DNA from: Rhizonema sp. PD37
GTDB lineage: Bacteria > Cyanobacteriota > Cyanobacteriia > Cyanobacteriales > Nostocaceae
NCBI GenBank assembly: GCA_029379215.1
Contig: JAQYWO010000014.1
Coordinates: 416 to 64,415, forward strand
Length of the DNA stretch: 64,000 nucleotides
Direction: 5' to 3'
Below the pieces are notes generated by a model that did no database searches, was not told the DNA's origin, and was given only the letters and a program-made list of their open reading frames with translations. The translations under genes and the position numbers were made by a program. Positions 41,171 through 60,034 of this stretch are shown here, one piece after another. Positions within the stretch are counted from its first letter, which is position 1. Every line of letters starts with the position of its first letter.

Positions 41171-42325
41171 CTAGTTCAATCCAGAACTGTACTGTTTATT
41201 GAGTTTAATTCCAGGGGCATAACTGACTGCCTCAATACGTTTGAGCTTTTTGTGCAACTGCTTATATCGTGCTGTTGCTCCTTGTTTTGCGTAGAGAGTC
41301 GCGGCCTCCCGATCATCTTTAATTGCTCCTTGTTTGTCTCTTAACTCGCAGCGAGCAATAGCGCGAATCATGTAGGCATCAGCCAAGTTAGGAGCGAGCT
41401 CAATAACGTGTGTATAATCTTCGATTGCTGCCTTATAATCTTTTAGAAAATAGTGGGCATCAGCAAGTCCTTTGTATGCATCAGTATAGTTTCGATCAAT
41501 TTTAATAGCTTGAGTGTAGTCTTTAACTGCTTTTAGATATTCGCTATTTACACTTTTTTTCTTTCCCTGATTAAAGAAGCTTTTTGCTTGATTTTTTTGA
41601 GAGTTCCTTTTTTCAATTTTTTGCTCTCCCTGATTAAAGGTGCTTTCTGCTTTGTGTTTTTGAGCAAAGTTATTAAATCCTAAAACTCCAGCAACAACTA
41701 AAACACTAGCCGCAATAAGAACTGAGCGAGTGGATATGTTTGGAGAGCGAATAATTTTCTGAAAGAATTGGTTATAAATGAAACTGTTAATAGGTGTAAA
41801 AATTGCAGCTTGTTTTGCTATAGTAAACTGTGTCTGCTTTTGCTCTTGTTCCAATTTCTCAATTTCTTCTCTAATGCCTTGAGCAATATCTACAAATGCT
41901 AGATTGTGGGTTATCCAAACTCTTCTGTTATCTACAGGTTCGCCATTGCTAGGCAAAGGTTTTAAGTCTCTAAACGGTGTAGCCTCCCAGTTATCAATTT
42001 GGCGGAGTTTAACAGGGATAACAAGGGATTTTTCACGATCGTGCAGTTTCATAGCCTGCTCTCCAATCTTCCAGCCATCAACCGAATTCATAAAATCTTT
42101 ACTAACTAGCAGAACAATTACGCGAGATGTCTTCAGGTGTCGGTAATTTTCCTGCTTCCAGTTACTTCCCGCAACCGTTTGACATTTATACCAGTTGATC
42201 CTCAATCCATTATTTCGTTTCAAATTGAAGAGTTGTGCGTCTAAATTTGCACGCATGTTTTCGTCTTTTTGGGAGTAGAAAAAGGAAATAGTAATAACTC
42301 TGCTAAATATCGGAAAGACAGACAT
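41171..42325 (-). CDS. TIR domain - TM helix - TPR repeat protein
   Basis: N-terminal TIR_2-like block (ISFFYSQKDE...VIVLLVSKDFMNSVDGWKIGEQA...VIPV). Hydrophobic SVLIAASVLVVAGVLGF. C-terminal TPR units (YTQAIKIDRNYTDAYKGLADAHYFLKDYKAAIEDYTHVIEL...). Confidence 0.75.
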   Translation of the reverse strand: MSVFPIFSRVITISFFYSQKDENMRANLDAQLFNLKRNNGLRINWYKCQTVAGSNWKQENYRHLKTSRVIVLLVSKDFMNSVDGWKIGEQAMKLHDREKSLVIPVKLRQIDNWEATPFRDLKPLPSNGEPVDNRRVWITHNLAFVDIAQGIREEIEKLEQEQKQTQFTIAKQAAIFTPINSFIYNQFFQKIIRSPNISTRSVLIAASVLVVAGVLGFNNFAQKHKAESTFNQGEQKIEKRNSQKNQAKSFFNQGKKKSVNSEYLKAVKDYTQAIKIDRNYTDAYKGLADAHYFLKDYKAAIEDYTHVIELAPNLADAYMIRAIARCELRDKQGAIKDDREAATLYAKQGATARYKQLHKKLKRIEAVSYAPGIKLNKQYSSGLN

Positions 42326-42400
42326 AAATTACAACTTAGTTCTGTTATATGAATGAAATGCTTTTAAACAGCTCAATGTTCACAACTTTTTAATCTGCAC

Positions 42401-43612
42401 TTAAGGTAATTCGCCACATAGTTTTCCTATTTCTTCGGCAAATTCTTCAGCAATGGTAACAAATGCTTCATTCTGACTTTTCCAATATCTACTAGTTACA
42501 AACTTACCATTCTTAGGTAAAGGCTGGAGATCGCCAAGCTCGAACTTACCAGGCTTAACGGTTTGCCAACCTGCAACTGAACTTAGAAGTACAGGAATCA
42601 CGAGAGTCCCTTCTTCTTCTCGTCTTTCCATTGCTCGCTTAGCCTCATAGTCAAGGTGGTAATCCGAAGAAAGAAAATGCCGACTAATAAGTAAGAGAAT
42701 TATAGAAGCTGAGTTCAAATGCTGAGTAATCTCTACCTTCTTATGTTTCCCTGGTGCAATTTTACTTTCATCCCAAATTTTTATATTACCTTGCGACTCC
42801 AAAAAGCTAAAAGATATTTGTAGATCCTTTCGGAGTTTTTCATCTTTTGGACAGTAAGATAAGAAAACTTCCATATTCTCTATATTTGCTTGTTTCGATT
42901 TGTGAAATGTTAGTAAATCTTGTTGGAGCTTGTAATTTACTAGAGTGGAAGTTTCCGGCTTAGTAGATTTTGGGGTTTGAGGTTCAACGCCAACAGCAGA
43001 AAATAGAGCAGTTGTGTTTAAACCTTCATTGTGCAACTGGCTTTTTGTGAACAGTTTAGGAGTCAAATACTCTGGAATACGTGAGACGCGGATAAGTTGA
43101 CGACCTAATTCGTAGGCAGATTCAACAGAATTTCTATCCCCTAAAGCATCGTAAAAACCAACGGCAAATTCAATTGCCGCCTGATCACCTATTTCTTTGC
43201 TCATGCCGATGACGTAATCAATATGTTGCGCGATCGCCTGAGCTTGAATCTCCGAATGACAAGCATTGAGTAATACACATTTAACATACTCCGCAAAATA
43301 CTTAAACAATCCAGCTAGCGCCTCTGCATCTACTAACTTTTCTTGCCCTGTTTCATCCTCAAATACTAAGCCTTTTTCCTGAGCGCCATGTCCTGAAAAA
43401 TGGACAATCTGTGGCTGGAAGTACATGATTTCTCGATGAATATCTCTATAGCGCACTGCTACTGCCAATTCAATTTGAAATTGGTCGCGTCCTTTTGATT
43501 GTCTTAATCCATTCTTTATTTCGCGTAACTCTTCGTCTATACGCAGTCTGCTTGTACCTTTCGGATTGGCTGCCAAAATTAAGATTTTGTTGACTGAGGT
43601 TCCACTATTCAT
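42401..43612 (-). CDS. caspase-like (minimal CHAT) protease domain fused to a TIR domain
   Basis: N-terminal ILILAANP...IVHFSGHG...CVLLNACHS (His/Cys dyad in caspase/CHAT spacing). C-terminal TIR_2-like VFLSYCPKDE...IILLLISRHFLSSDYHLDYEAKRA...VIPVLL. Confidence 0.75.
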   Translation of the reverse strand: MNSGTSVNKILILAANPKGTSRLRIDEELREIKNGLRQSKGRDQFQIELAVAVRYRDIHREIMYFQPQIVHFSGHGAQEKGLVFEDETGQEKLVDAEALAGLFKYFAEYVKCVLLNACHSEIQAQAIAQHIDYVIGMSKEIGDQAAIEFAVGFYDALGDRNSVESAYELGRQLIRVSRIPEYLTPKLFTKSQLHNEGLNTTALFSAVGVEPQTPKSTKPETSTLVNYKLQQDLLTFHKSKQANIENMEVFLSYCPKDEKLRKDLQISFSFLESQGNIKIWDESKIAPGKHKKVEITQHLNSASIILLLISRHFLSSDYHLDYEAKRAMERREEEGTLVIPVLLSSVAGWQTVKPGKFELGDLQPLPKNGKFVTSRYWKSQNEAFVTIAEEFAEEIGKLCGELP

Positions 43613-43809
43613 TTAAGGATTTTATGTAGATACTATTTAGCACTGCAATTTTCAGTTGAATTTTCTTGAGCCGATCTGACAAGGTATATACCTTGTCACT
43701 CAGAGCCACTCAGAAATCTAAATCCTGGATATTACATATAATTACATAGAGCTTGCCGCAAATTCCAGATGAATAGCGACTCAAAAACTCTTTACATTAC
43801 AACTCATCC

Positions 43810-44184
43810 TTAAACCTGCCTCAGCATCCACAGCATGGGGTCGAGAATCCGTAATCCTTCAAAAGAGGAAGCTGTTTCACTGTTATTACCTATGCCAATA
43901 GCACAACATAAGAAAAATCGCACTCTAGAAAAATGACTGCGGAGGTTACGAACAAAGTTACCAGCACCGTAATCGATCAGGAACTCTTCTACCACCTTGT
44001 CCATCGCATCTTCCACCTTACGAATTTTGGCTTGAGGATGATCCAGCATGTACTGACGTGCCGCTGGTTCTCCGATTTTTTGCTCCATATCAAACGCATC
44101 AGATTTAGTAACGACGACAGCTAAAGGCGCACGAACTCGTTGATTGCGCTTGAGATTGAGCTTAGTCTCAAAGAGCATCAACAT
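43810..44184 (-). pseudogene. P-loop GTPase-like gene, C-terminal fragment (N-terminal part decayed)
   Basis: VVVTKSD resembles the NKxD specificity motif. No Walker A in the ORF. Upstream (44209-44400) only frame-broken pieces can be read (..ISSGKCRKK.., ..TFHYVDAL*). Confidence 0.4.
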
Positions 44185-44189
44185 AGTGG

Positions 44190-44208
44190 AACGTGCAAAT
44201 CGTTTCCA
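44190..44208 (+). repeat. 19-bp direct repeat, copy 2 (AACGTGCAAATCGTTTCCA)
   Basis: Identical to 40665-40683. Lies at the frame break of the GTPase remnant. Confidence 0.9.
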
Positions 44209-44695
44209 TCGTATCGCTTGTTGCTTTGACTACAGGTGAGAGCGCATTTGCTACATTCAATTCTTTACACTTAAGAAGGCGTAACGGCAGTCGGCAGCTA
44301 TGCTGCTATGTATCCCCATAAATAAATATATTCGATTTAATAAGGACGTAGCATTTCTTGCGGCACTTTCCGCTCGAAATACATATTTTTTTCTTTTTCA
44401 TACTTAAAAGTAGGGGCTTGTACCCACAATTATGATAACTTTGAGCATCCCTTTATACCTTTTTTCTTTTACCTCCTTCAGCATAGCTGCAATCATGCCT
44501 CTGCCTTTCCTCGGTCATCTAGTATACCGATTTTTTCTAAGTAAATAATCCTTGCCTTAAGTAACTTGCAGATGATAGCTAACAAGGTTGGCTTCTTAAC
44601 CAGGAATAGCTGAAGATTTTGGATTAGCGATCGCAAACAAAATAAATGATGCACTACAGTCTCATGTAAAATTGGATTAAGTAAATAAATCCTAT

Positions 44696-45451
44696 ATGCT
44701 CTATATGGATACCCTAAAGCAAGCGGCAAAAAGATTATTAGGTCAGTCTTTAGTGAATAAATGGCGATTATGGAAAGTCAAAAAAACATATAAGGAGCTA
44801 GTGGGAAAATCGTCAGAAGAAATATTTACTTCGTTTTACGAAAAGAATCATTGGCGCGATGAACAATCAAAATCCGGTCCTGGTTCATCAGACTTTGAAA
44901 CTAAACATATTCGCACGATTTTGCCTAACCTAATACAAGAGCTTAATATTAACGTCCTCTTGGATGTACCTTGTGGCGATTTCAATTGGATGAAATTTAT
45001 TGAATTGGGAAATTGTGACTACATTGGTGGAGATATTGTCAAAGAACTAATCACAATTAATCAAAATAAATATGCAAGCCATAAGCGGAAATTTTTATCT
45101 TGTGATATTAGAAAAGATGAGCTTCCATCTGCTGATTTGATTCTCTGTAGAGACTGCTTTTTCCACTTATCATTTGAGGACATATTTGCAGCAATAGAGA
45201 ATTTTCAAGCTACTAAATCGATATATTTGCTAACTACCACTCATCCTGATACTAGAGAAAATCTTCCTATCGTAACAGGCGGTTATCGTTCTCTTAACAT
45301 GTGCCTAGAACCCTTTAACTTTCCAACCCCATTAAAACTTATTTATGAAAGACGTGATGCAGGTTTTGCAGATACTGATAAGTGCATAGGTCTTTGGAAA
45401 CTGAGTGATCTGCTCAATAAAAAGGGAAGATATTTATCGACAAATGTTTAA
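44696..45451 (+). CDS. class I SAM-dependent methyltransferase
   Basis: Motif I-like LLDVPCGDFNWM. Motif post-I GGDIV. LILCRDCFFHL. Confidence 0.65.
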   Translation: MLYMDTLKQAAKRLLGQSLVNKWRLWKVKKTYKELVGKSSEEIFTSFYEKNHWRDEQSKSGPGSSDFETKHIRTILPNLIQELNINVLLDVPCGDFNWMKFIELGNCDYIGGDIVKELITINQNKYASHKRKFLSCDIRKDELPSADLILCRDCFFHLSFEDIFAAIENFQATKSIYLLTTTHPDTRENLPIVTGGYRSLNMCLEPFNFPTPLKLIYERRDAGFADTDKCIGLWKLSDLLNKKGRYLSTNV

Positions 45452-45596
45452 CCCGGATTTGTTCTTACAAGCCTACGGTAAGATATATCGCACAACACGA
45501 GTGCAATGACACGCCCGCGCAGCAGACGAAACTGTAGATGGAATGTCAAGAGCAAAAATTGATGCCATGATTAACGATCTTCGTTATGAAAGGTAT
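45450..45596 (+). pseudogene. reverse transcriptase (group II intron / retron-type) N-terminal fragment
   Basis: My translation: NPDLFLQAYGKIYRTTRVQ*HARAADETVDGMSRAKIDAMINDLRYERY. It matches the RT N-terminal pattern ..AY.kIy.nkGa.TpG...eTvDGMs.ekI..li..Lr.erY. One in-frame stop, and similarity ends after RYERY. Confidence 0.5.
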
Positions 45597-45686
45597 CTAG
45601 GCTTCTTCTTGACGAGCATATTTCATCCACTGTTGCTGTACAGTTACAAGCAATCAACTGCACTGATTTATACTGTAGTGGGTAGT

Positions 45687-47861
45687 TCACAACCAAGTTC
45701 TCGGACGCACGCGGTTGGCTTCATCAACCAGGTGGATCTTTTCATCTCCAGTTGAGAGGTGTGCCATATCCCGCAGGGCTTTTTCCAACCCTTTTCTAAG
45801 ATACAATTCCTCCAAAGGTTGTCCTAGAATTGAAATCGCGGAAGTAGAGGAGAGTGCTTGAGAAGTGACAAGATGTAAGGCTGTCTCCAAAACCTGTTTC
45901 GTTAATTGATGGCGATCCATACCTTTGAGAGTCAGCGCTTCAATTGCTGTGGAAGCTTCTTTGAGTTCTTGTGCACCAGGTGCGGAACTGGAACGATCAA
46001 TAAGTGTCCGAGCAATTTCCACACGCGATCGCGTATACAAATTGGAAGTTTGCGGTACGCGTTCCAATGCTGCCACTGCATTGTTTCTATCTCCTGTGGC
46101 GCATAAGCAACGAGCTAAACCGAAAGTAGCTGAGGTATAACTGGGATCGGTACGAGACACCAAGTCGTACATCTGAATTGCTAGTGGCAAATGATCTGCT
46201 GCTTCTGCTGCTAAAGCAAGTGCTAGTTTAGGTGTTAGTTCTCCAGGTAAATCAAAGTAAACTTGGTCAAAAGCTGCTTGAGCCTCTTGAGCTTTACCGT
46301 GTGCCATCAAACTTCGTCCCCGATACCACAGCACTCGCCAATCCCAAGGGTCTTTTTGCTCCACTTGTGCCAAAAGCTGTTCCGCCTCATCATAAATACC
46401 AACTTCAATCAAGCTGTTTGCCAAACGCAGCAATGCTTCCTTAGAATCTGGAAAGTGCAGGACAACTTGTCTCAAACTGGTTACTCGCTTCACAGAATCG
46501 GCAATGGCACTCGCATTGAGTATCGCGTTAAAACCTGGTTCTGTGGTATCCAACATCGGCATCGGCAACTGGTGATAATCGGCTTTGATGGCACTCAAAT
46601 CACCACTATTGATCAGTGCCAGCATATCTCCACCAAAAAGGTTACTGGTAGCTGGACGTGGAGTCTTGGTTTCCCTAGCAACAATCTCCCGCAGCACTCC
46701 AAGTAACTGATCTGCCATTTCATCAGCAGACTGGAAGCGCTCGTCAGGATTTTCTGCTGTGGATTTTAGTAAAAAACGATACAAGGACTCTTGCTCGGCA
46801 AACAGTGGTTCTTCTTGAGGACTGGGCAGCTTGTGTAAATGTTCTTTAGTAAAGCTGCTGATGTTAGTGAGCAAAACAGCAAGAGTCCTGCCAATGGTGA
46901 ATAAATCTGAGACTACCGTTGGTCCTTCACTCGCTTCAGGAGCGCTGTAGCCGACTGTACCATAAATGTCCCCGTGCAGATCGTCTATGCGTCGCACGCC
47001 GCCCAAGTCGATTAATTTTACATCGTTGTCTTCAAGCATCACGTTATCCGGCTTGAAGTCACAATATACCAAACCTAAGGAATGCAAGTAAGCAAAAGCA
47101 CTTAAAATCCGGTGAATGTAAGCGATCGCCTCCGTGACTGGCAATGGACCTCGCTGTTTGCGAATGTCCCTCAACGTTTTGCCACCCACATACTCCATAA
47201 CGATGAAGCCTTCGCTACCGTAGTTAACAAAGTTATAAATGCCGACAATATTGGCATGTTTCACCGCAGCTAAAAATTGACGTTCTGCCACTGCCACTGC
47301 TGCACTTGCCGCATCTTCAGTATTTAGCAGACCTTTGAGTACGACGTAACGAGACAGCGTTTTATCAAAGCCCAAGTAAATCCAGCCCAGTCCACCAAAG
47401 GCGATCGCACCTTTAACTTCATATTGTCCAGCCACTAAATCTCCTGGAAAGAGAGACGGTATAAAGGAATACTTGTGCCCACATTTGGGACAAAAGCCTT
47501 TCTCACGAACGAGAGGATTGTTGCAATTTGCACAGAAGCGTTTGTTGTCGGGAACCTTCGCCTCCACCATGATTGCCTTTTCTGGTTCTGTGGAAGGAAG
47601 TTCGGGCACAGAGACAAGTCCGGCCCCAAGTTGCTTGCGGGTGCTTCTCTTCGAGGTGTTGTTTGTACGACGCGAACCTTTAGAACGATTGGTTAGTGGA
47701 GATGATCCCGTACCTGTAGTAATGTTTGTGCTTTGCTTCGTTTCCATTCGCATGGAAACATCAACCAATGACGAATTGAAGTCAGCAAGTCCGCACACAT
47801 TACAATAGCCATCTTCAATGATGCCAGTACACTTATTATGCTTACAGCGATCGCCTTCCAT
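45687..47861 (-). CDS. Ser/Thr protein kinase with two N-terminal zinc ribbons and C-terminal TPR-like repeats
   Basis: CKHNKC...YCNVCG and CANCN...FCPKCG. Kinase blocks GGLGWIYLG, VVLKG, YCDFKPDNVM, DLGG, GTVGYSAPE. Helical repeats in the C-terminal half. Confidence 0.85.
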   Translation of the reverse strand: MEGDRCKHNKCTGIIEDGYCNVCGLADFNSSLVDVSMRMETKQSTNITTGTGSSPLTNRSKGSRRTNNTSKRSTRKQLGAGLVSVPELPSTEPEKAIMVEAKVPDNKRFCANCNNPLVREKGFCPKCGHKYSFIPSLFPGDLVAGQYEVKGAIAFGGLGWIYLGFDKTLSRYVVLKGLLNTEDAASAAVAVAERQFLAAVKHANIVGIYNFVNYGSEGFIVMEYVGGKTLRDIRKQRGPLPVTEAIAYIHRILSAFAYLHSLGLVYCDFKPDNVMLEDNDVKLIDLGGVRRIDDLHGDIYGTVGYSAPEASEGPTVVSDLFTIGRTLAVLLTNISSFTKEHLHKLPSPQEEPLFAEQESLYRFLLKSTAENPDERFQSADEMADQLLGVLREIVARETKTPRPATSNLFGGDMLALINSGDLSAIKADYHQLPMPMLDTTEPGFNAILNASAIADSVKRVTSLRQVVLHFPDSKEALLRLANSLIEVGIYDEAEQLLAQVEQKDPWDWRVLWYRGRSLMAHGKAQEAQAAFDQVYFDLPGELTPKLALALAAEAADHLPLAIQMYDLVSRTDPSYTSATFGLARCLCATGDRNNAVAALERVPQTSNLYTRSRVEIARTLIDRSSSAPGAQELKEASTAIEALTLKGMDRHQLTKQVLETALHLVTSQALSSTSAISILGQPLEELYLRKGLEKALRDMAHLSTGDEKIHLVDEANRVRPRTWL

Positions 47862-47880
47862 AAGATTTAGGAGTCAGGAG

Positions 47881-48098
47881 GTGTGTCGTGGGTTTAATGT
47901 ACATTTCTTATGTACAGAAGAAATGTACATAAGATTTGAACAGAGGCGAGCAGATTATCAAACCCGCCTGTATACAAGTTATAAATAATACTGTTTTAGC
48001 ATTCATCATTTCTAATTCATAACTCCACGCCTTTACAGACGGGTTTCACAAGACTTGAAATTGACTCACAACTTATCTGAATTAAACCCACGACACAT
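47881..48098. repeat. palindromic MITE-like element (17-bp terminal inverted repeats, nested inner inverted repeats)
   Basis: gtgtgtcgtgggtttaat (47881-98) versus attaaacccacgacaca (48081-97). Inner 13-bp perfect hairpin 47897-47909/47918-47930. aaacccgcctgta/tacagacgggttt is nested. The right arm overlaps the last codons and stop of the 405-aa gene. Confidence 0.7.
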
Positions 48099-49299
48099 TG
48101 TTCAAGCGTTTTTCGTATTGAGACACCAGATTAGCAGCTTTGTCTAAAGGAGTTGGTCGGGTGTACAAAAGCTGCTGAGCTTGATAAGCTAAATCAGCTA
48201 AAGTCGCATCTTCAACCATTCCCCGTGCCAGCGCCTTGGCTTTAAGAGCGTCGAGTCGTCCGCGCAACTCGGCTCTAATTTCTAATGGTGCTTTGTTTGC
48301 TGCATAGGCTTTTTCAGTTGCTGTAATATATTCCTTCACCTTGAGTGTCCAGTTTTCCAGACCAACTTGCACGGGATTTATCAAGCCTTCAGCAAACTTG
48401 GTTTCCAGTCTACTCAGCCAAGACGAAAGTGCAACGATATGCTCACTTGCCAAAGGAGGTTGCAGCATTGAATGGTCAACTACCTTTAAACTACTCTCTT
48501 CAAAGGCAGCTATTGCTAGGCGATGTAGTTCTACCAACTTTGATTGTAGTTGGTGTGCGCTTTGCCAATTTTCTTGCCATAGTTGCTGCTGTTTAGCAAC
48601 CTGCTCTAAAGATATTTTCACCCGCCCTATGAGGGGTTGAATTTCACGAGTGAAATCTACACTTACTCCCAACGGATCGCTCTCAATCCTCTGACGCCAG
48701 AAAGTCATCTTTTGACTGGCGTCGGCAAGTTCTGTTAAGGAATCGACACCCAGCGAATCAGCCCATTTTTGCAACGTCTGAATCTCGGTTTGTGCGTTAT
48801 CCAGCATGGGTTCCAAGTGCAACCAAGCTTCATCAACAGCCAAAACGGCTTCCTTGGCGATATTAAAGGCGAGAGTCATTAGCACGAGTAACTCTTGAGG
48901 AGCGATCGCATCTGTAATCTCTGCCGCACTCAAAAGTCCTCTTTCTGCTAAGGAAATTTGTGTGGCAGCGAACTGAATGGATCGTTTTGTGAGAATTCGT
49001 TCAATTTCTTGCAGTTTCTGTGGCGATACCAAAAACCGTGGTATGGATAAGCGCAGTTGAGTTGCCTTATCGACTGTCTGCACAAGTAAGTCGAAATACC
49101 CGAACAAATCGTTCATTGCCTCTAATGCTGGACGCAATCGCGCTTGAGTAACTCCCACAATTTTTGCATTGGGGAATCCAGATATACCAGTAAGCCGTTG
49201 GTAAGTTGGAAGTCCATGCAAGTCTATCAGGTTCTGACCCGCAAGATCGATTCTCTTTTTCCAATCGGCTAACAATTGGTCAATTTCTTCAAGAGTCAT
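48082..49299 (-). CDS. hypothetical all-helical protein (405 aa), first gene of the kinase/phosphatase module
   Basis: Long ORF, same strand, directly upstream of the kinase. Heptad-like Leu/Gln/Glu-rich sequence. No enzymatic motif. Confidence 0.6.
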   Translation of the reverse strand: MTLEEIDQLLADWKKRIDLAGQNLIDLHGLPTYQRLTGISGFPNAKIVGVTQARLRPALEAMNDLFGYFDLLVQTVDKATQLRLSIPRFLVSPQKLQEIERILTKRSIQFAATQISLAERGLLSAAEITDAIAPQELLVLMTLAFNIAKEAVLAVDEAWLHLEPMLDNAQTEIQTLQKWADSLGVDSLTELADASQKMTFWRQRIESDPLGVSVDFTREIQPLIGRVKISLEQVAKQQQLWQENWQSAHQLQSKLVELHRLAIAAFEESSLKVVDHSMLQPPLASEHIVALSSWLSRLETKFAEGLINPVQVGLENWTLKVKEYITATEKAYAANKAPLEIRAELRGRLDALKAKALARGMVEDATLADLAYQAQQLLYTRPTPLDKAANLVSQYEKRLNNVSWV

Positions 49300-49372
49300 G
49301 AGTTAGTTGTTAGATGTTGGGTATTGGGTGTTGGTTGTCAAAAATTACTAATAACCACTTCCTATCTTTACA

Positions 49373-49440
49373 ATGACTCAATAATGCCGCCACCCAAAAC
49401 TCTTTCCTCATCGTACCAGACTGCCGCTAGACCTAGTTCA
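49373..49440 (-). pseudogene. mnmA 3'-end remnant, copy A (divergent)
   Basis: 31 nt (atgactcaataatgccgccacccaaaactct) are identical to 55501-55531. Encodes ..[19 protein letters not shown], compared with mnmA ..[18 protein letters not shown]. Confidence 0.75.
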
Positions 49441-49511
49441 TGCGACAACGTACGTTTCGCCGTCCCTGCTTCTTGTTGTCATTGTATGTACAATGAGCAT
49501 ATAATCTGGGG

Positions 49512-49781
49512 ATGAAAATTATCCGGTGGGATCTCAAGAAGAATGAAAAGCTTCGGTCTGAACGAGGGGTGTCTTTTGAAGCGGTTCTTGCGGCGTTGGA
49601 AACAGGAAACCTTCTTGATGATTACATTCACCCGAATCAAGGCAAGTATCCAAATCAACGTTTACTGGTCGTCCAGATCGAAGGGTATGCGTATCTTATC
49701 CCGTACGTTGAAACCGAGTCAGAACTTTTCTTGAAGACTATTATTCCATCTCGCAAGGCAACCAAGCAGTACCTACTTTAG
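49512..49781 (+). CDS. BrnT-like toxin (DUF497-type)
   Basis: IIRWDLKKNEKLRSERGVSFE... and C-terminal LKTIIPSRKATKQY fit the BrnT pattern. A cognate antitoxin gene follows after 2 nt. Confidence 0.65.
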   Translation: MKIIRWDLKKNEKLRSERGVSFEAVLAALETGNLLDDYIHPNQGKYPNQRLLVVQIEGYAYLIPYVETESELFLKTIIPSRKATKQYLL

Positions 49782-49783
49782 AG

Positions 49784-50065
49784 GTGATGAGCATGAGTAA
49801 ACTCGATGATGAAGAGAAGGAAATACTTGAGTCCTTTGATTCGGGGGAATGGGAATCAGTGGGCGATCCAAACCGTCTTGCCCAGCTTCAAAGCTATGCC
49901 AACGGCACTATTGCCAAAGATAAGCGAATTACGTTACGGCTTTCGTCGATGGATTTCGATGCAATTCAAGCAAAAGCAATCGTTGAGGGAATTCCATATC
50001 AGACCTTTATCTCAGGCATTTTGCACAAGTACATAACCGGAAGACTCATCGAACGACGAGAGTAA
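49784..50065 (+). CDS. BrnA-like antitoxin (CopG/RHH-type C-terminus)
   Basis: EEKEILESFDSGEW.S ... KRITLRLSSMDFDAIQAKAIVEGIPYQTFISGILHKYITG. Confidence 0.7.
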   Translation: MMSMSKLDDEEKEILESFDSGEWESVGDPNRLAQLQSYANGTIAKDKRITLRLSSMDFDAIQAKAIVEGIPYQTFISGILHKYITGRLIERRE

Positions 50066-50233
50066 AGAGTCAAATCCCGATTCGACAGGACACGTGTATG
50101 AAGCTTGATTATATCCTTTGTGAAAATCACAAAACAATTCGCTTCATCACAATACGTTCTTAATTTTTAATTCCGTGTACTCCTTCACAAGAAGCAAGCT
50201 ACGCGCAGCTTGTCCCAAGGGGACTCAGGGGTA

Positions 50234-50423
50234 CTAACTCAATTGCTCAATGATGCCGCTACCTAAGACTCTGTCCCCATCGTACCAGACTGCGGCTTGT
50301 CCGGGAGTGATGCTGAACTGAGGTTCGTCAAACACGATACGGACGCGAGAGTTTTCTAAGAGGAACACCGTAACTGGTGCGGGATTTGAACGATAGCGGA
50401 TTTGCGCTTCGGCACGGATGGGG
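50234..50423 (-). pseudogene. mnmA 3'-end remnant, copy B
   Basis: 50268-50423 is identical, by my base-by-base reading, to 55527-55682 (156 nt). The tail differs (..[11 protein letters not shown]). The listed 76-aa ORF is this fragment plus junk N-terminal codons. Confidence 0.9.
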
Positions 50424-50635
50424 AAGAAGTGGTTTATTCGACACACTACCTTTGATTTCAACACTCTACAGATGTAGGGTGTTTATTCAAAAATAAAATA
50501 GGATTTCTATATTAGACGCAAGTAATGGGAGAAGTCAAGTTTTTTAAGGTTTTTAAAAGTAATATATAAGACCTGGTATACAGATTCAGCAGGGCAGTAT
50601 CAGTTCATCTGACGAGTTGAATGAAAATACTTAAA

Positions 50636-53600
50636 TCAAATATAACCCTTTGATGAAACAACTCGATTTTCTGCATCAAGCATGAAATCATAAGTGTTTA
50701 AAAAATCAGACTGCCACTTTTCAGGCTTTTGGCAAATTGCTAGTGAAAATCCTGCTAAATCAAACCATTGAATATCATCCCCAATTTCTACTGGTACTAC
50801 TCTCCAATTTTTACTTGGAGCCTTACTGAAATCTCTAAGCAGATTGACGTCAATTCGATTAGGAGGTTTAGGAGTTGGTAAATGTCGTTCAACACTAGAA
50901 AATGATTGATCTACCCAATTTCTGATATTGACTGCATTAAGATATTCATTTTGTTCCGGTTCTCTTTCGCTAATGTAGTAATAGTAAGTCTGCGCTAATT
51001 CTTCAGCTTGTTTACGAGTTGTTACATCTTCTACTTTAGCAAGCAAGTATGCGGCTACTGGATCTAAAGTTCCCCATACAATAAGTTCTTTCATCCAGAA
51101 AACAATCCAAGGTAGCCCAGTTTGTGACCAGTTTTCAAGGGATGATTCAACTAACTCACCACCAAAAGCTTCATCTATAGCTAGTGCAATAACACTTCCT
51201 AAGCCCCAGTTGAATCTATATCCAAAATTTTGACTAATATATGAATGCCAATTTGAAATTTGAGTCGGTTTCGGTTTTTTAATTGCTTTAGTAGGGTCAA
51301 GCCACCAGCGTAATATTTCATTCCAAGTAACCTTTCCTGATGGGTCGATTAGTTTAAACTTCGATAAACTGGTTAAAATACTAACTATATTTTGAATATA
51401 ATTAAAGCGTTCTTCTACTGTCCAAATAGCATAATCTCCACCCACTGCTAATTGTTCTTTAAGTCGAGAATAGAGAGTTAAAAGCTGATTTCCATCACGT
51501 GGTGGTAAACTAGTGCGATACAAGCGCCGACGCTGTGACAAATCTTTATAAATTTCTGTTTTCAGTGCCCTACCTCGCCTGATAAATAAATTTTCTAATC
51601 TTTCTTGTTCGCGGCTAGCGTAATGAGCAAAGCTTCGTTGCCAAATTTTTTGCAGTTGCTCCTCCAATTCATTAGGGCTTAAATCATTAGCTGCTAGCTG
51701 TTCAATTTCAACAATTGCAGACAGTAAAATGCTATCCAGCGAATCTAAAGTTTCAATAGCTGATAATTCTGTATCAGAGAGATTATTGCCAGAGTCAAGC
51801 GGTGCAGTTTTTTCCAGCCATGTAAAAAATTTTTCTTGTCTATTAGAACTGGAAATTAGCTGCCATTGTTCTTCCAAACGTAGCAGTAATTCTGCTATAG
51901 GACTTAGAGGATTTGCATTTGGGTTAATTGCTTGTGTTTGAGCCTCTAATTCTTCTATCAAAGATAAGTATCTTTTACGTGCTTCTTTGTCACTCCAATC
52001 TGTCGATGCATTACTAAGTAATACTAAACTACGTCCTTCTGTGCCAAATCCAGGTCTTCCAGAACGACCAACTAAATTACCAAATTCACGAATATTTAGT
52101 TCTCCCGTACCACGTCTTAAACTTGGAATTAATACTGTTTCAAAAGGAAGATTAACCCCTTCGGAAAGAGTTGACGTTGCTAAAACTAAATGTACAATTT
52201 TTTCATCTATGACATCGATAAGTAATCGAGCCATCAAACCTGGCATTTTTCCATGATGTACTATGATTCCTTTCTCTAACAGCTTATACTCGCGAGATTT
52301 AATACCAAAATAATCTTCACATGAACGTAAACACTTTTGCCAAATCTCAAGTTTTTCTGGCTCTACAGGTTCTTTAAAAAATGAAGGTATTTCTATTTGC
52401 GACCAAATTGTCAAAAAATTCAGAAAGTCTTCAGCATAACCGCCAGGGTGCTGTGTGACTGAAATAAGAACGGCACGTCTTTGTCCTTTTTCATCTGGTG
52501 CAGCTAAGTGCATAGCTGCCCAGAAAAGATAAGGGCGTAACCTCTTTTCAACTCCTTCTTTTTTACCTTTTGGCACAGGAGGATATGTCGGAAAAGGATT
52601 TGGAATAAAAGGTGTGTCAGCTTGACCACCTTCTTGAAATTCTAATCTTCTACCATCAAGTAAGTCATAGCGTATTTCAAATCCTTTTCCTGGCAGGCAT
52701 TCAAGACGACCTATTAATTGACGCGTACTTCTGTAATTTGTCTTTGCTGGGCTAGCGTTAGTTAAATTTTCTATCCAGCTTGCTAAAGCACCTTCTGTTT
52801 CTGATGCAACAGCGGATAGTGCAATAATTCGGCTATTATTTTGTTCTATATAAGTAAACAGTCTTGCACTTAATGACTCTAAGCGTAAGGATCTATTCTC
52901 AGCTTTTTGCAAAGAATCTTTATTACCATCAAATTGAACTGCATGGGCTTCATCAAGTACAATAAGCGATACTCTACGGATAAATAGAGACCCTAAAAAT
53001 TTCATCAAAGCTTCTGCTTTTTCATAAGTGCAAATTAAAACTGTTGGCTGTTCTGATGTCAGCCATACATCTGTTGGACCCCAGTCAGTACCTCCATATA
53101 AACCTGTAACTATGACATTGTTATTAGTAGAGCGCTTTAAAACACGAGACAAATTTGATTCAACTTCTGTAGCAAGCGCTCTGCTTGGCACTAAGTAAAT
53201 TACTAAAGGAGCCGAGTTGCTTAATTCGTTATAATTTGTTGTTTCAAAGAACAAACTTTGCAGAATAGCAATTTCAGCTATTGTGGTTTTTCCTGAACCT
53301 GTAGGGGTACAAAGAGCAAATGATTCTGCTGTTGATAGTCGTTCAATTCCACAAATTTGAGAACGCCATGCTAAAGTTTTACACTTTTGATAACTTTGAC
53401 GTAAATAACGCTCCAAGAAAGTTTTACCACTTTGGGTAATCATCTGAGAAAGTGCTTCTAAATGATATCGTAGAGAAGTTTCTATATATACATAAGCAAC
53501 TTCAGCACATAACTTACCTAAAAGCCAAGAATAAGTGTCATGTCCATGAAGAAGCACCTTAGCAATAGCAGAAAGCTTTTCAATAGCTTTTTCTAATCTT

Positions 53601-55228
53601 GGTTCATTTCCCCAGCGCATTTTTGCACATAAAATTCCTAAAGAACTAGCAGTTTCTTTAACAATCAACTTGTTAAATCTGTCAGCAGTTGTATCAGTCT
53701 CATCCCAAAGAAGACTTGTTTCTGTTTGGAAATTTGATGATGTTGCAGTTGCCCAATATTCTGTCAGCTGTTGCAATAAACTGGGAAAATCAGCTTTTAG
53801 CAAAGAACGTAGAATTTCTGACTCTATTCCCTCACTTATATCTTCATTGAGTAAACCTGCAGCCATAGCAGGATAACCAGCAAGTTCATACACAGCTGCT
53901 GCAAGTAAACGAATTGGTAAAATATCCGGGTTTAGTTGGGGATGAGATAGCCATTCAAATAACTCACCAGCCCGTAGCATTCCATTACGCCAGTTAATAT
54001 CTCCAGTTTCTCGCTGGATAAATGCAGCCTCAATAAGGCGCATAGCATCATTTAATCTTTCACCTGCTTCATCTTCTCGCCACCCAGTTAATCCCTTTCC
54101 TCCTGCGCGAAGTCTGGTATGTTGGCTATAAAGTTTTGCAATTGCTGGTGTTAGTCTGCTACCTGCCAGACTCTTTTGTAGTTCTTTCGCTAAAGCAATG
54201 ACTTCGTTACTTGGTTGAGTCATCTCATTTTGCAGAACTTCACCCTCTACTATGACATCAGAGTTTGCTTTTGTAACCTCTGAATCATCTGGTTGTTGAA
54301 CTTTATGAGTATAAATATTTACTGTATGTGTTACAGTTACTGGCTGACTATAGACACTTGTAACCAGATTCTCAACTTCATGAAGGTGAATTTCAACTGC
54401 TTCGAGTCTTCTTTCTGCTGTATATTGTTCGTGTGGTTTTTCGAGAGGTATCCAGGTGGAATTTCTGATAGGATGTTCACCACAAATATAACTAATTAAA
54501 TCGCAGCGTTCATAATTTCTATCAACTTTTTTTTCTAGCCATAAAACTCTTAGAGAATCAACCCATTCAGATGAAAAAGGATCATCGTAATCACCCAAAA
54601 TCTCAATTATTTGTGGGATATCAACAGGCTTTATATGTGGTTCACTTGCCTTTTTATGTGCTTCAGCTATCATTTTGGTGTAATGATTAGTTGTGCATTT
54701 AGCTTCACAAACTAGAGAAGCAATAATTACTCCTTCGCTGTTACGTAGAAAAGCAAGACAATCATCGCCTGTACGTCCAGGTCGCTTTTTTGCAATCTCT
54801 TCAGTTTGATTTAGAAATTCTAAATGCTGAAACTCAACTAGATGAAATCGAAAAAGAAAAGCAGGAATTTCCCAATCATCCCGCCCAAAAGGAGCAAAAT
54901 TTTCAGCAATGATTCCTGAAAATATCTCTCCAAAATAACCCTGAAGGGATATAATATTAAGACGCTCAGGATAGCCATAGCTTGGATCGTTGTCTGAAAA
55001 ATCCCCAAATGGAGTGAGAGAATTTCCTGCTAATTTATGAAGACGATATCGAGCATCTTTATGGGCTTTTTGAACAATTAATATTAATTCATTGATAATT
55101 ATATTTCGTTGGCTTTTATCTTCTCTGAGCAGACGATGTGTGTACCGCTTATCTTCAGATTCACTAACTGAGTTAGATAACCACTTTGATATTCCGTTAA
55201 ACCTAGTGATTTTTTGTCTTTCTTCCAT
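50636..55228 (-). CDS. HamA/DUF1837-like PD-(D/E)xK domain fused to a DEAH-box SF2 helicase (single-polypeptide Hachiman-like candidate), 1530 aa
   Basis: N-terminal LQGYFGEIFSG..., GRTGDDCLAF..., LVCEAKC (nuclease-fold D...ExK). Helicase motif I CTPTGSGKT, II LIVLDEAHAV, V ATSTLSEGVNLP, VI GRSGRPG. Large helical linker and about 430-aa C-terminal region. The gene is visibly more AT-rich than its neighbours. Confidence 0.6.
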   Translation of the reverse strand: MEERQKITRFNGISKWLSNSVSESEDKRYTHRLLREDKSQRNIIINELILIVQKAHKDARYRLHKLAGNSLTPFGDFSDNDPSYGYPERLNIISLQGYFGEIFSGIIAENFAPFGRDDWEIPAFLFRFHLVEFQHLEFLNQTEEIAKKRPGRTGDDCLAFLRNSEGVIIASLVCEAKCTTNHYTKMIAEAHKKASEPHIKPVDIPQIIEILGDYDDPFSSEWVDSLRVLWLEKKVDRNYERCDLISYICGEHPIRNSTWIPLEKPHEQYTAERRLEAVEIHLHEVENLVTSVYSQPVTVTHTVNIYTHKVQQPDDSEVTKANSDVIVEGEVLQNEMTQPSNEVIALAKELQKSLAGSRLTPAIAKLYSQHTRLRAGGKGLTGWREDEAGERLNDAMRLIEAAFIQRETGDINWRNGMLRAGELFEWLSHPQLNPDILPIRLLAAAVYELAGYPAMAAGLLNEDISEGIESEILRSLLKADFPSLLQQLTEYWATATSSNFQTETSLLWDETDTTADRFNKLIVKETASSLGILCAKMRWGNEPRLEKAIEKLSAIAKVLLHGHDTYSWLLGKLCAEVAYVYIETSLRYHLEALSQMITQSGKTFLERYLRQSYQKCKTLAWRSQICGIERLSTAESFALCTPTGSGKTTIAEIAILQSLFFETTNYNELSNSAPLVIYLVPSRALATEVESNLSRVLKRSTNNNVIVTGLYGGTDWGPTDVWLTSEQPTVLICTYEKAEALMKFLGSLFIRRVSLIVLDEAHAVQFDGNKDSLQKAENRSLRLESLSARLFTYIEQNNSRIIALSAVASETEGALASWIENLTNASPAKTNYRSTRQLIGRLECLPGKGFEIRYDLLDGRRLEFQEGGQADTPFIPNPFPTYPPVPKGKKEGVEKRLRPYLFWAAMHLAAPDEKGQRRAVLISVTQHPGGYAEDFLNFLTIWSQIEIPSFFKEPVEPEKLEIWQKCLRSCEDYFGIKSREYKLLEKGIIVHHGKMPGLMARLLIDVIDEKIVHLVLATSTLSEGVNLPFETVLIPSLRRGTGELNIREFGNLVGRSGRPGFGTEGRSLVLLSNASTDWSDKEARKRYLSLIEELEAQTQAINPNANPLSPIAELLLRLEEQWQLISSSNRQEKFFTWLEKTAPLDSGNNLSDTELSAIETLDSLDSILLSAIVEIEQLAANDLSPNELEEQLQKIWQRSFAHYASREQERLENLFIRRGRALKTEIYKDLSQRRRLYRTSLPPRDGNQLLTLYSRLKEQLAVGGDYAIWTVEERFNYIQNIVSILTSLSKFKLIDPSGKVTWNEILRWWLDPTKAIKKPKPTQISNWHSYISQNFGYRFNWGLGSVIALAIDEAFGGELVESSLENWSQTGLPWIVFWMKELIVWGTLDPVAAYLLAKVEDVTTRKQAEELAQTYYYYISEREPEQNEYLNAVNIRNWVDQSFSSVERHLPTPKPPNRIDVNLLRDFSKAPSKNWRVVPVEIGDDIQWFDLAGFSLAICQKPEKWQSDFLNTYDFMLDAENRVVSSKGYI

Positions 55229-55375
55229 TCTCTATAGCTTGCCATCTGAGGCGTTGCTAAAAAATATTTCTGGTTCATGCAATTATGTGCTAAAAAAGAC
55301 TAATAATGTTATAGCAATTATACTGAAAAAACTTTTGTAAATTGTGAGATTAAGAAGTTTTATGTAGAAAATAGT

Positions 55376-55411
55376 CAACCGCCTTTAATATATGTACATT
55401 AAAGGCGGTTG
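55376..55411 (-). terminator. hairpin downstream of mnmA (candidate terminator)
   Basis: CAACCGCCTTTAAT/ATTAAAGGCGGTTG, a 14-bp perfect stem. On the minus strand it is followed by ACTATTTTC, a weak T tract. Confidence 0.5.
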
Positions 55412-55498
55412 CGTGACAATGAAGTTCTATCAGTAGCGAGTGTAGTTGATCAGCAAAAGCAAAACTCTGGTCATTGGTTATTAAGTTTGGACAAATTA

Positions 55499-56566
55499 TT
55501 ATGACTCAATAATGCCGCCACCCAAAACTCTGTCCCCATCGTACCAGACTGCGGCTTGTCCGGGAGTGATGCTGAACTGAGGTTCGTCAAACACGATACG
55601 GACGCGAGAGTTTTCTAAGAGGAACACCGTAACTGGTGCGGGATTTGAACGATAGCGGATTTGCGCTTCGGCACGGATGGGGGTTGATGGTTCGGCAATT
55701 GACACCCAGTTGACTTGTGCTACAGAACATTCTGGCTGTGTTGCCAGAGTGCGATCGCCAACAATAACTCGGTTATTCACTGCATCTAAGCCGATGACAT
55801 ACAGTGGTTCTGCGGCAGCAATTCCTAACCCTTTGCGCTGTCCAATCGTGTAGTGATGGACACCATCATGTTTGCCGAGGATTTTCCCCCCAGTGTCAAC
55901 AATATCCCCTTGCTTGGGGGCAAGATATTTATCAAGAAACGCTTTCATAGAGCCGTTTGTTTCCACCAAACACAAGTCCTGACTTTCTGGCTTATCAGCA
56001 GTTTTTAATTCGTATTCGGCAGCGATTTTACGAGTCTCTGTTTTCTGTATTTCTCCTAGTGGAAATACAGATGCCGCTAATAAATCTTGGGAAAGGTCAT
56101 AGAGGAAGTACGACTGATCTTTATTGCGATCAAAAGCCCGATGCAACTGATAACGTCCAGTCGTTGGGTCATAAATGATCCGAGCATAGTGACCTGTGGC
56201 AATTTTGTCGCATCCCAGATGTTCTTGAGCATATTGCAACATTGGACCAAATTTCACAGTCTTGTTGCACTGAGAACAAGGCAAAGGCGTAATCCCAACA
56301 CTGTAACCAGCTACGAGATAATCCACAATATTGGTTTGAAATACTTCCCGAATATCAACAACATGATGGGGAATGCCAAGCTGTTCGCAGAGATAAGCCG
56401 CATCAATCATACCCTCAGAGCAGCACTGACCTTTCCCTTTCATTAACCAAAGGGTGAGACCAATAACTTCATAGCCCTGATTGTGTAATAGAGCAGCAGC
56501 AGTGGAACTGTCAACGCCACCAGAAAGACCAACTACGACTTTGTTCATACCGTGATTGCTTGGCAA
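55499..56566 (-). CDS. mnmA: tRNA 2-thiouridine(34) synthase
   Basis: PP-loop [11 protein letters not shown]. Cys motifs ..KGQCCSE.., PCSQCN. The C-terminal barrel ends ..[18 protein letters not shown]. Confidence 0.93.
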
Positions 56567-58568: not shown

Positions 58569-58825
58569 AGTTCAACAAGGTTGCTGTTAAGAGAATGGTA
58601 GGTTGAGAAGCCAGTGCTGTTCTCAGGAGCGGAGACGCTCCTGAGAAGACGGGTTTCCCGACTTGAGCAAAGTGGCGTTAGAGCGCAACGCGAAACCCAA
58701 CAAACGCCTCTTGAACCAGGAATCACGGTTTCACAAGCATTTCAGGCCACATGAATATAATATGAATTTTGCACAGGTACTTAGTGACAAATAATTTAGT
58801 TAATGTACAATACTTGATTTATTAG

Positions 58826-58897
58826 TGGGTGACCTAGGAGTCGAACCTAGAACCAATGGATTAAGAGTCCACTGCTCAGCCATTGAGCTTCTCACCC
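58826..58897 (-). tRNA. tRNA-Lys (anticodon CUU), with non-canonical G7:G66 and A8
   Basis: Manual fold: GGGTGAG-AA-GCTC-AATGGCT-GAGC-A-GTGGA-CTCTTAA-TCCAT-TGGTT-CTAGG-TTCGACT-CCTAG-GTCACCC-A. No encoded CCA. Confidence 0.7.
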
Positions 58898-59505
58898 AAT
58901 GAAACATGATACTAAATTTATGACAAAGTTGCCACTATTTCTGCTTTTTTTTTGTTTGACTGCAAAAGGGGGGAGAAAGAAATTTCCATATTCCCAAGAA
59001 ACATATTTTATAACCCTTACATAGCAAGGCTTTCATGGAATGAATACAAATGTGTTTCTTTCATTTGTTGCTCGTGGCGTAAGCCGCTAGTCGTCAGATC
59101 ATGTCGTGTAACTGGAAAGAGCGAATGTGTTAAGGGTTGCCCATCAATCAGCAAAAGGTCATAACCTACACCAATAATGGCATGGTATTTATAAATTGCG
59201 TATTTTATGTATAAAATAAACAAATATAAAAACAGTATCCGCCCAACAACTATAGGATTCCTATTTGATTTTTGAACAACTAGGTGGTCTAGAAGCTTGA
59301 CTTACAAAGCTTTTCTCTTAAGTATACTAAGCAAGATTCAAGTACGATTCTTATAGATACACCACACTTCTGATGTCAAGATTTAATTGGGTTCATTTCT
59401 AAGCAGTATTTGGGCAAAAAGAAGAGATATAAACCCTGACTTTCCCACGAGGACCTTCCGTAAAGGGGTGGGAGCGTCAAAAAGCATGTCACACCGCCAG
59501 CTGGA

Positions 59506-59617: not shown

Positions 59618-60034
59618 GTGTCTGCAAAAGATATTTTTCATGAATCAGTTAAAAAAGCTTTGCAAAAAGAACAATGGATAATTACGAGTGATCCATTAAA
59701 GTTTAAATTTGGGGAGGTCAACTTCCAAATTGATTTAGGAACAGAGAAATTCATTGCAGCAGAAAAAGAAAACAAAAAAATAGCAATTGAAATTAAAAGC
59801 TTTTTAAACGCCTCTGCAATTACAGATTTTTATTTAGCTTTGGGACAATTCCTTAGTTACCGTTTAGCATTAGCAGGATATGAACCCCTGCGAGTATTAT
59901 ACTTAGCAGTTCCATTGGATACATACAAAACATTTTTTCAACTTGAATTTACTAAAAATGCGATCAAACAGTATCAGGTGCTGTTAATTGTTTACGATCC
60001 AGAAAATGAGGTGATTGTACAGTGGATAAATTAG
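59618..60034 (+). CDS. xisH: XisH-family protein
   Basis: MSAKDIFH..VK.AL.KE.W.IT.DP...... pattern, 138 aa. Overlaps the downstream xisI-type gene. Confidence 0.85.
   Translation: MSAKDIFHESVKKALQKEQWIITSDPLKFKFGEVNFQIDLGTEKFIAAEKENKKIAIEIKSFLNASAITDFYLALGQFLSYRLALAGYEPLRVLYLAVPLDTYKTFFQLEFTKNAIKQYQVLLIVYDPENEVIVQWIN

Follow-up and report, generated by a model that had tools for sequence, protein, structure and literature searches.

Copies of the mnmA gene end around toxin-antitoxin and defence cargo in Rhizonema sp. PD37: candidate scars of two different kinds of acquisition

A contig from the metagenome-assembled genome (MAG) of the cyanobacterium Rhizonema sp. PD37 carries three copies of the 3′ end of mnmA, the gene for tRNA 2-thiouridine synthase. 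The stretch analysed is 64,000 nucleotides (nt) long; it is termed the window, and all coordinates are positions within it. The copies bracket two cargo blocks. Islet 1 is a BrnT/BrnA toxin-antitoxin (TA) pair, and islet 2 carries a single large gene that encodes a Hachiman-like nuclease-helicase, HamA-HamB. In describing the gene ends, positions are counted in nt upstream of the stop codon: the tail (t) denotes nt 1-25 and the head (h) nt 31-66. The working gene end is then (h1,t1), copy B is (h1,t2) and copy A is (h2,t1). The features at the locus, including a remnant of an insertion sequence (IS), are as follows.

31225-32511, minus strand: sat (ATP sulfurylase), ancestral downstream neighbour of mnmA in Nostocales and outer limit of the 23-kb variable region at 32512-55498
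48082-49367, minus strand: g405, a conserved cyanobacterial hypothetical gene (48082-49299), with its 68-nt upstream region; the neighbour of mnmA before the insertions, now following copy A
49368-49433, minus strand: copy A, the last 66 nt of mnmA, with native tail t1 on a diverged, apparently foreign head h2; core AGAGT at 49399-49403
49447-50065, plus strand: islet 1 cargo, BrnT (49512-49781) and BrnA (49784-50065), with a predicted promoter of its own at 49476-49505 (scan score 11/12)
50066-50233, no strand: putatively foreign spacer of 168 nt that would have arrived with tail t2; terminator-like hairpin at 50195-50212, ~20 nt past the copy B stop
50234-50423, minus strand: copy B, the last 190 nt of mnmA, with head h1 and an apparently foreign, Nostoc-like tail t2 (last 25 nt plus stop); core AGAGT at 50268-50272
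50424-50427, no strand: AAGA, a 4-nt filler where the IS630 remnant is illegitimately joined to copy B
50428-50512, plus strand: IS630-family remnant, the last ~85 nt, with the right inverted repeat (50483-50512) intact and the 5′ kilobase missing
50513-50635, no strand: AT-rich spacer between the HamA-HamB stop and the IS630 end
50636-55228, minus strand: HamA-HamB fusion, a single 1530-amino-acid (aa) Hachiman-like nuclease-helicase
55229-55498, minus strand: native mnmA downstream region of 270 nt, outside any inserted element; terminator hairpin at 55376-55411
55499-56566, minus strand: working mnmA, with tail t1 as its last 25 nt; core AGAGT at 55527-55531

A repeat search of the window reveals a direct repeat of 178 nt at 98% identity (50246-50423 and 55505-55682) and a 66-nt family with three members in one shared orientation (49368-49433, 50237-50302 and 55496-55561). 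A 20-nt core, allowed up to three mismatches, is found at exactly these three sites across the 64 kb, where chance would give 0.01. In an in-register base comparison, copy B differs from the working end solely at nt 2, 3, 10, 18, 22 and 25 upstream of the stop, and its nt 26-181 are the same as those of the working gene at 156 of 156 positions. Copy A differs solely at nt 31, 35, 52, 56 and 58. Its last 31 nt are the same as the working end (49373-49403 = 55501-55531), and its head h2 displays five mismatches in 30 positions, or ~83% identity. Copy B contains a 76-aa open reading frame (ORF) that matches the Pfam domain tRNA_Me_trans_C. The working gene is intact: against the NCBIfam MnmA equivalog (cut-off 284) its score is 438.7 bits, and the three Pfam domains are all present at full length. 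Its true start is likely to be the ATG at 56548, since homologues align from residue 7.

Much of this had been described in a first-pass annotation of the same DNA. Base comparison and the repeat search agree with it that the final ~190 nt of mnmA are repeated at 50234-50423 with 156 nt identical, that a third and more diverged copy (here placed at 49368-49433) shares the final 31 nt of the gene, and that all copies point the same way. It had also stated that only BrnT/BrnA and one 1530-aa gene lie between the repeats, that islet 2 is visibly AT-richer, and that the repeats enclose no integrase or transposase. The gene content is as stated; the HamA-HamB gene has a GC fraction of 0.371, compared with 0.463 for mnmA and 0.415 for the window; and a domain search of the ORFs between the repeats found no such enzyme.

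The locus was compared with 80 Nostocales mnmA loci and with those of two closer relatives, L088 (~90% DNA identity) and L089 (~80%, on an 8.9-Mb contig), 82 in all. The upstream neighbour of mnmA, a SPOR-domain gene, is conserved across the 80 Nostocales genomes. Downstream, sat and a caspase-domain gene are the conserved neighbours; in the window they occupy 31225-32511 and 28829-30982. Between mnmA and sat lie 78 nt to 8.2 kb in 32 of the 80 genomes and 23 kb in the window, and the cargo found in this gap in Nostocales includes Uma2, ParDE, nSTAND1-TPR, TnpB-like and HNH genes. Phage_integrase is absent among the 25 families listed of the 136 matched by ORFs of the gap. The L088 allele consists of the SPOR gene, mnmA, 31-57 nt, g405 (its orthologue is 90% identical in aa), PknG and, further on, PP2C, VWA, FHA, sensor and sat, with no islets and no repeat. 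In L089, mnmA is followed by 270 nt and then by ~9 kb of defence-like cargo, comprising an IS4 transposase, an HKD+Snf2 helicase (4.5e-90), a HEC-01A-like ATPase (1e-151) and DUF4351, before g405 and PknG; no repeat is present. A second copy of the mnmA 3′ end was found at none of the 82 loci, either by comparison of the window's gene end with the loci or of each mnmA with its own flanks.

The region 3′ of mnmA is thus a polymorphic, hypervariable accessory and defence hotspot in Nostocales: the same core flanks enclose different cargo or none, and the cargo is rich in defence and TA genes. It resembles known defence islands in having conserved flanks (mnmA on one side, g405 or sat on the other), a variable defence and TA content, and many occupied sites without mobility genes. 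It differs in that the scars in the window let single recombination events be rebuilt base by base. The locus had been proposed beforehand as a serial insertion hotspot, and the empty L088 allele, the other cargo in L089 and the gap sizes of 78 nt to 8.2 kb bear this out. A comparison of occupancy across relatives, suggested at the same time, reveals polymorphism (L088 empty, L089 occupied) rather than a uniform arrangement. The mnmA-end repeats, on the other hand, do not represent a general property of the hotspot, being absent from all 82 related loci.

Several smaller features of the variable interval can be recorded. Heptamer tandem repeats are found at both of its edges (L088, 2360-2410; window, 55452-55472 and 49310-49345; L089, 813-872 and 9955-9996). 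They are of TGACCAA-like and GGGCATA types and might favour deletions, the short L088 allele being a possible case. The TGACCAA type resembles the short tandemly repeated repetitive (STRR) sequences of heterocystous cyanobacteria. A signalling cluster at 32928-37604 and 45687-49299 (g405, a PknG-like kinase, a PP2C phosphatase, vWA, FHA and sensor genes) separates mnmA from sat in the Rhizonema lineage alone (window, L088 and L089); more distant relatives have g405-PknG after znuA. Nostoc sp. WHI carries a duplicated internal piece of mnmA, 206 nt long (L070, 8111-8316; gene nt 616-821, 96% identical), 2 kb downstream of the gene and beside a ParDE pair and Uma2; it is another sort of mnmA scar at this hotspot.

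The three gene ends of the window form a mosaic. Copies A and B both switch between the adjacent informative sites 25 and 31, inside the 5-nt sequence AGAGT that lies 26-30 nt before the stop. The mismatches of copy B are clustered, with none in the 156 positions beyond nt 25 (P ~7e-6 under uniform spread), and so are those of copy A, with none in the 30 positions of its tail (P ~0.03). This clustering rules out uniform pseudogene decay as the source of the mosaic. From the distribution of the mismatches, it seems that the resident end (h1,t1) underwent a single reciprocal crossover with a foreign end (h2,t2), and that copies A and B are what it produced. The mosaic had previously been considered inexplicable by one simple event, but a single reciprocal exchange predicts it, both products switching within the same 5 nt.

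When the two foreign halves are joined, an attP-like attachment (att) site is obtained, GGTCTAGCGGCAGTCTGGTACGATGAGGAA-AGAGT-CTTAGGTAGCGGCATCATTGAGCAATTGAGTTAG, which reads in frame. Its tail t2 resembles the end ...GGGIIEQFS-stop of Nostoc and most Nostocales, whereas the Rhizonema protein ends in ...IIES-stop. Its head h2 has Q→L and G→E changes in a motif that is invariant across the 80 Nostocales genomes. A functional tail on an altered head fits an attP carried by an element, where the tail would complete the target gene after integration and the head would never be translated.

These properties bear on whether host recombination alone could have loaded the locus, through RecA- or microhomology-mediated single crossovers of circularised cyanobacterial fragments for which mnmA served as conserved anchor. 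It speaks for such a process that mnmA is the conserved flank of the variable locus in all Nostocales examined, and that variable DNA begins ~40 nt past the stop in L088, ~75 nt in Stigonema and 270 nt in the window and L089, which fits random end-points. The mnmA fragment of Nostoc sp. WHI, 2 kb downstream and near ParDE, and the presence of BrnTA in unrelated contexts without att-like repeats also agree with it. However, the exchange partners of islet 1 are ~80% identical over 66 nt, the 5-nt block was exchanged and a nearby 16-nt identical block was not used, and both reciprocal products switch in one 5-nt interval with no heteroduplex tract. These features suggest a short-overlap, site-specific-type exchange rather than RecA, for which the pattern would be atypical. 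In addition, Q→L and G→E changes at invariant residues are unlikely in the head arm if the donor was a freshly copied working gene. Host recombination alone is considered distinctly unlikely.

A site-specific-type origin of islet 1 can be outlined as follows. The donor may have been a circular element of ~0.87 kb, in which BrnT/BrnA and the 168-nt spacer were combined with 66-80 nt that mimicked the mnmA 3′ end. The circle would have recombined once, conservatively and reciprocally, with an mnmA end inside AGAGT. The exchange would have given the recipient mnmA copy a coding-competent Nostoc-type tail, now the tail of copy B, and would have moved the native tail onto the decayed head arm of the element, now copy A. 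The layout of the islet, an arm of ~66-80 nt, 13 nt, BrnTA with its promoter, and the 168-nt spacer after t2, is consistent with this order. Both the circular intermediate and the participation of a site-specific recombinase, whose gene was lost or was supplied in trans, are what we infer from the products of the exchange.

Islet 1 thereby resembles a cis-mobilizable element (CIME), and may be the footprint of a site-specific integration. CIMEs are islands that keep their att sites and have lost the integrase, with no genes for integration or transfer inside. Two likenesses are specific to islet 1: a reciprocal exchange at a short core swaps in a replacement end borne by the element, and the resident g405 upstream region follows the distal repeat, copy A. 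There are differences as well. Islet 1 has merely 0.87 kb and is a bare TA module; the target is mnmA and the host group is Nostocales cyanobacteria; and no cognate autonomous element or integrase was found in the collections searched.

BrnT and BrnA match Pfam BrnT_toxin and CopG_antitoxin with scores around the curated cut-offs, and their homologues are named BrnT family toxins by NCBI. The module displays ~85% DNA identity to modules in unrelated contexts, confined to 49447-50066; these adjoin rpmB or sit between asd and eno, and have no repeats. The 168-nt spacer has no homologue among the 80 Nostocales mnmA loci or the BrnTA loci.

Other origins of islet 1 were considered and rejected. 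Homology-facilitated illegitimate recombination (HFIR), with copy A as the undisturbed resident end, would require that an invariant motif of the resident mnmA had undergone Q→L and G→E changes, and also that three natural alleles shared a breakpoint within the same 5 nt. Integron gene cassettes do not apply, as the window has no attC and no integrase, and the repeats are copies of a gene end and not imperfect palindromes. Nor is an RNA gene (tRNA, tmRNA or other) the att target: the sole candidate, tRNA-Lys(CTT) at 58825-58897, lies 2.3 kb upstream of mnmA and is not adjacent to it.

Islet 1 could also represent a class of minimal non-autonomous integrative cassettes in cyanobacteria, of less than 1 kb, each consisting of a TA module and a private attP in imitation of the final ~66 nt of mnmA, with the recombinase encoded elsewhere. 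We regard this as improbable. If it were true, it would mean that single defence or addiction modules are loaded behind an essential tRNA-modification gene in a manner like that of integrons or of integrative mobile elements exploiting Xer (IMEX), which depend on a host recombinase.

The structure of islet 2 is different. Immediately after the working gene end come 270 nt that appear to be native, since they occupy the same position after mnmA in L089 and Stigonema with an identity like that of mnmA itself. Identity to the sequence directly 3′ of mnmA in L089 is 78.7% over 277 nt, compared with 80.8% for mnmA, and the first ~61 nt are 85% identical to the mnmA downstream sequence in Stigonema (L001). 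A terminator scan places a hairpin with a 16-pair stem and a following T run at 55376-55411, and this terminator is conserved. The HamA-HamB DNA is 94-97.7% identical to three Nostoc loci (L081, L082 and L084), and the identity is confined to 55229-50629: it starts at most ~10 nt from the ATG, with TATA microhomology just upstream, and stops 7 nt past the stop codon. By comparison, MnmA is ~85% identical in aa between Rhizonema and Nostoc. The HamA-HamB gene therefore seems to have been acquired recently from a Nostoc-type source. The three Nostoc copies share an extra upstream region of ~125 nt, and none of the closest HamA-HamB genes (97, 95 and 92% in aa) adjoins mnmA, their flanks being unrelated.

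At the other end of islet 2, the spacer at 50513-50635 has no match in any locus, plasmid or phage compared. The IS630 remnant beyond it matches, at 76-89% identity, the 3′ ends of IS630 elements from 12 Nostoc and Fischerella plasmids. It is truncated in its interior and joined through AAGA to the inner edge of copy B, 190 nt before the mnmA stop. A solo IS630 terminal inverted repeat of ~30 nt is also found at 59250-59279, between tRNA-Lys(CTT) at 58825-58897 and xisH at 59618-60034.

With a native 270-nt flank, foreign DNA only from the ATG onward and copy B abutting a truncated IS630, islet 2 does not seem to be delimited by att sites. Copy B itself is hardly an att arm, since such an arm would not stop partway through an IS, nor be identical to the host gene at 156 of 156 nt when h2 is at 83%. 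The simplest reading is that copy B is the 190-nt stump of a formerly working mnmA. Perfect identity of its head is expected if the recombining partners were conspecific. The first-pass annotation had likened both islets to elements that integrate into a gene 3′ end and carry a replacement end. This view stands for islet 1, with its reciprocal exchange and element-borne tail, and not for islet 2, where the native flank, the start of foreign DNA at the HamA-HamB ATG and the truncated IS630 speak otherwise.

Islet 2 may have arrived as part of a segment that was stacked in front of the resident allele and came from a conspecific strain or a sister chromosome. The segment would have held a complete mnmA with native tail, the 270-nt downstream region, HamA-HamB, the spacer and IS630. 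Two joints would have fixed it in place: a homologous exchange, either within mnmA or upstream of it, and an illegitimate joint between the truncated IS630, the 4-nt filler and mnmA nt -190. HFIR, an unequal crossover, or Campbell-type insertion of an illegitimately closed circle could each have been the route, as the product is the same. At an earlier time the HamA-HamB ORF would have been captured from a Nostoc-type source through an illegitimate joint at most ~10 nt from the ATG. The conspecific donor is what we infer from the identity of the two mnmA heads. The two acquisitions fit in either order, and islet 1 could have entered the displaced stump.

HFIR and Campbell-type insertion-duplication have been described for naturally transformable bacteria. 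Islet 2 is like them in that one junction would fall within a perfect 156-nt homology and the other joins the interior of IS630 to mnmA nt -190 with a short filler, and in that a duplicated anchor segment flanks the new DNA. It differs in that the process is here reconstructed from sequence alone, and in that the joint displays no clear microhomology.

The main competitor for islet 2 is classical tandem accretion, in which both islets are decayed CIME-like elements at one mnmA att site, the integrases having been deleted and the IS630 insertion and truncation being secondary. Tandem accretion of CIMEs and of islands derived from integrative and conjugative elements (ICEs) or integrative mobilizable elements (IMEs) is well documented at the 3′ ends of protein genes, e.g. 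for ICESt1/ICESt3-related elements at fda in Streptococcus thermophilus (PMC5704250). The Rhizonema locus has the same general appearance: integrase-less islands between direct repeats of a housekeeping gene end, with three co-oriented repeats that delimit two cargo blocks, and a clean reciprocal exchange in islet 1. The islet 2 exchange could have fallen at the same AGAGT, or anywhere in the 156 identical nt (nt 26-181), and in Nostoc sp. UIC 10890 a tyrosine-recombinase fragment lies ~390 nt from a HamA-HamB gene of 97% identity. What makes accretion unlikely for the locus as a whole is the sequence after the working gene end, which is 270 nt of native syntenic sequence and not element DNA, and the arm that islet 2 would have to carry, which ends after 190 nt in a truncated IS with a filler joint. 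That arm is 100% host-identical over 156 nt, whereas the genuine arm h2 is at 83%. Moreover, foreign HamA-HamB DNA starts only at the ATG, and att-type repeats and integrases are absent beside mnmA at all 82 related loci. Islet 2 differs from accreted elements accordingly: what comes after the new gene end is not element DNA, and the supposed arm stops at a truncated IS.

Taken together, we lean, though with modest assurance, towards the reading that the two extra copies are scars of two mechanistically different acquisitions in a hypervariable accessory and defence locus, one of a site-specific type and the other by homologous plus illegitimate recombination. A number of results weigh against this reading. 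With respect to islet 1, domain searches of the 64 kb found no integrase or transposase domain in any ORF of at least 120 aa, and inspection of the sequence around AGAGT reveals no inverted-repeat core. The head of copy A is known from five informative sites only. Among 85 BrnT loci, 80 of them from metagenomes, there is no second BrnTA module with mnmA-like arms, nor are there flank repeats. Islet 1 and the repeats have no match in phages and match plasmids in the IS630 remnant only, so that neither carries such an att site. As to islet 2, the alignment of the junction between IS630 and copy B displays no clear microhomology, and a conspecific donor allele (mnmA, 270 nt and HamA-HamB without copy B) was found in none of the databases searched. 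Exact-protein look-ups of the window's mnmA product, with two choices of start, and of HamA-HamB found no other carrier. The perfect 156-nt identity could also have arisen by gene conversion between att arms. Finally, the tandem arrangement of the two 156-nt identical copies is as given by the metagenome assembly.

This last point raises the question of an assembly artefact, i.e. a chimera of two strains, or of a chromosome and a 5.26-kb circle, joined through the 156-nt identical segment. The contig is metagenome-assembled, and an exact repeat of 156 nt approaches the length of a short read; a chromosome with islet 1 only, plus a HamA-HamB circle, would presumably give the same k-mers. In biological terms such a 5.26-kb circle would be the loop-out product expected from perfect repeats. 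Yet the unique joints (IS630/AAGA/mnmA -190, promoter/h2 and t2/spacer) must exist in real molecules and cannot be made by the collapse of repeats, and copy A and islet 1 are independent of the long repeat. The chance that the locus is an artefact therefore seems very small. If the arrangement is real, islet 2 could loop out and re-insert through RecA acting on the perfect 156-nt repeats, with no need for an integrase.

The identity of the islet 2 protein is of interest in its own right. At the sequence level, aa ~413-1348 match PADLOC HamB1 (1.2e-63), and aa 619-1349 (~730 aa) match PDB 8vx9_B (E = 7.7e-21). HamA is barely detectable by sequence (PADLOC, E = 0.0011). At the structural level, an AlphaFold2 (AF2) model of aa 1-400 (mean predicted confidence, pLDDT, 72.5) has HamA structures as its only significant matches, 8vxy_A (E 5.6e-7) and 8vx9_A (2.2e-6); the Foldseek matches have a probability of 1.0 and a target-normalised TM score of 0.66-0.68, and the HamA-like fold covers aa ~1-295. 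A GRxGDD...EAK motif is invariant in 27 homologues. By sequence and predicted fold, then, the 1530-aa protein is taken to be a Hachiman-like HamA-HamB fused in one polypeptide. It is like the Hachiman system (HamA nuclease plus HamB helicase; 8vx9, 8vxy) in that the C-terminal ~1100 aa are HamB-like and the N-terminal ~300 aa have the HamA fold with D...EAK. It differs in that both parts are joined by a linker of ~300 aa, HamA (DUF1837) being fused and not encoded by a separate gene.

Homologues of 1470-1620 aa are numerous in cyanobacteria, and versions of ~1200 aa that lack the N-terminal ~330 aa are found in other phyla. In Nostoc sp. UIC 10890, a tyrosine-recombinase fragment (L081, 9434-9613) is located ~390 nt upstream of the 97%-identical HamA-HamB; it comprises 59 aa from the C-terminal part of the enzyme and matches positions 132-171 of the 172 in Pfam Phage_integrase. 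The natural single-polypeptide HamA-HamB appears to move between Nostoc and Rhizonema as an almost ORF-exact unit.

The Rhizonema locus provides a base-by-base record of how a cyanobacterial defence and TA hotspot may be loaded by two routes, one of site-specific type and the other homologous plus illegitimate. It clearly illustrates a type of genome flux that is already known; no new mechanism is involved and current concepts are unchanged. It also carries a caution, in that direct repeats of a gene end around cargo are not in themselves att sites. With islet 1, mnmA joins the list of possible island target genes. The first-pass annotation was aware of no such role for mnmA, and no paper on mnmA/trmU as an island or prophage target was found in the literature searched. 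These considerations may be of practical use in predicting island boundaries and in following defence-gene flux in lichen photobionts, Rhizonema being a lichen cyanobacterium.

A second variable spot is present elsewhere in the window. The interval 37605-45686, between PknG and PP2C, has ~8 kb in the window and ~1.1 kb in L088. It contains a PD-DExK protein (37912-38526), Uma2, a DUF433-PIN pair, a ThsB-like TIR-TPR protein (41171-42325), a CHAT-TIR protein (42401-43612) and a methyltransferase. Two further genes lie on the minus strand near the start of the window. A 442-aa ORF at 4698-6026 has RRXRR (7.8e-63) and HNH domains, the domain pair of the IscB-type RNA-guided nucleases of IS200/IS605. 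The other, at 7196-8722, encodes a 508-aa Ro60/TROVE-domain protein with a vWA domain; bacterial proteins of this type are usually accompanied by Y-RNA-like RNAs.

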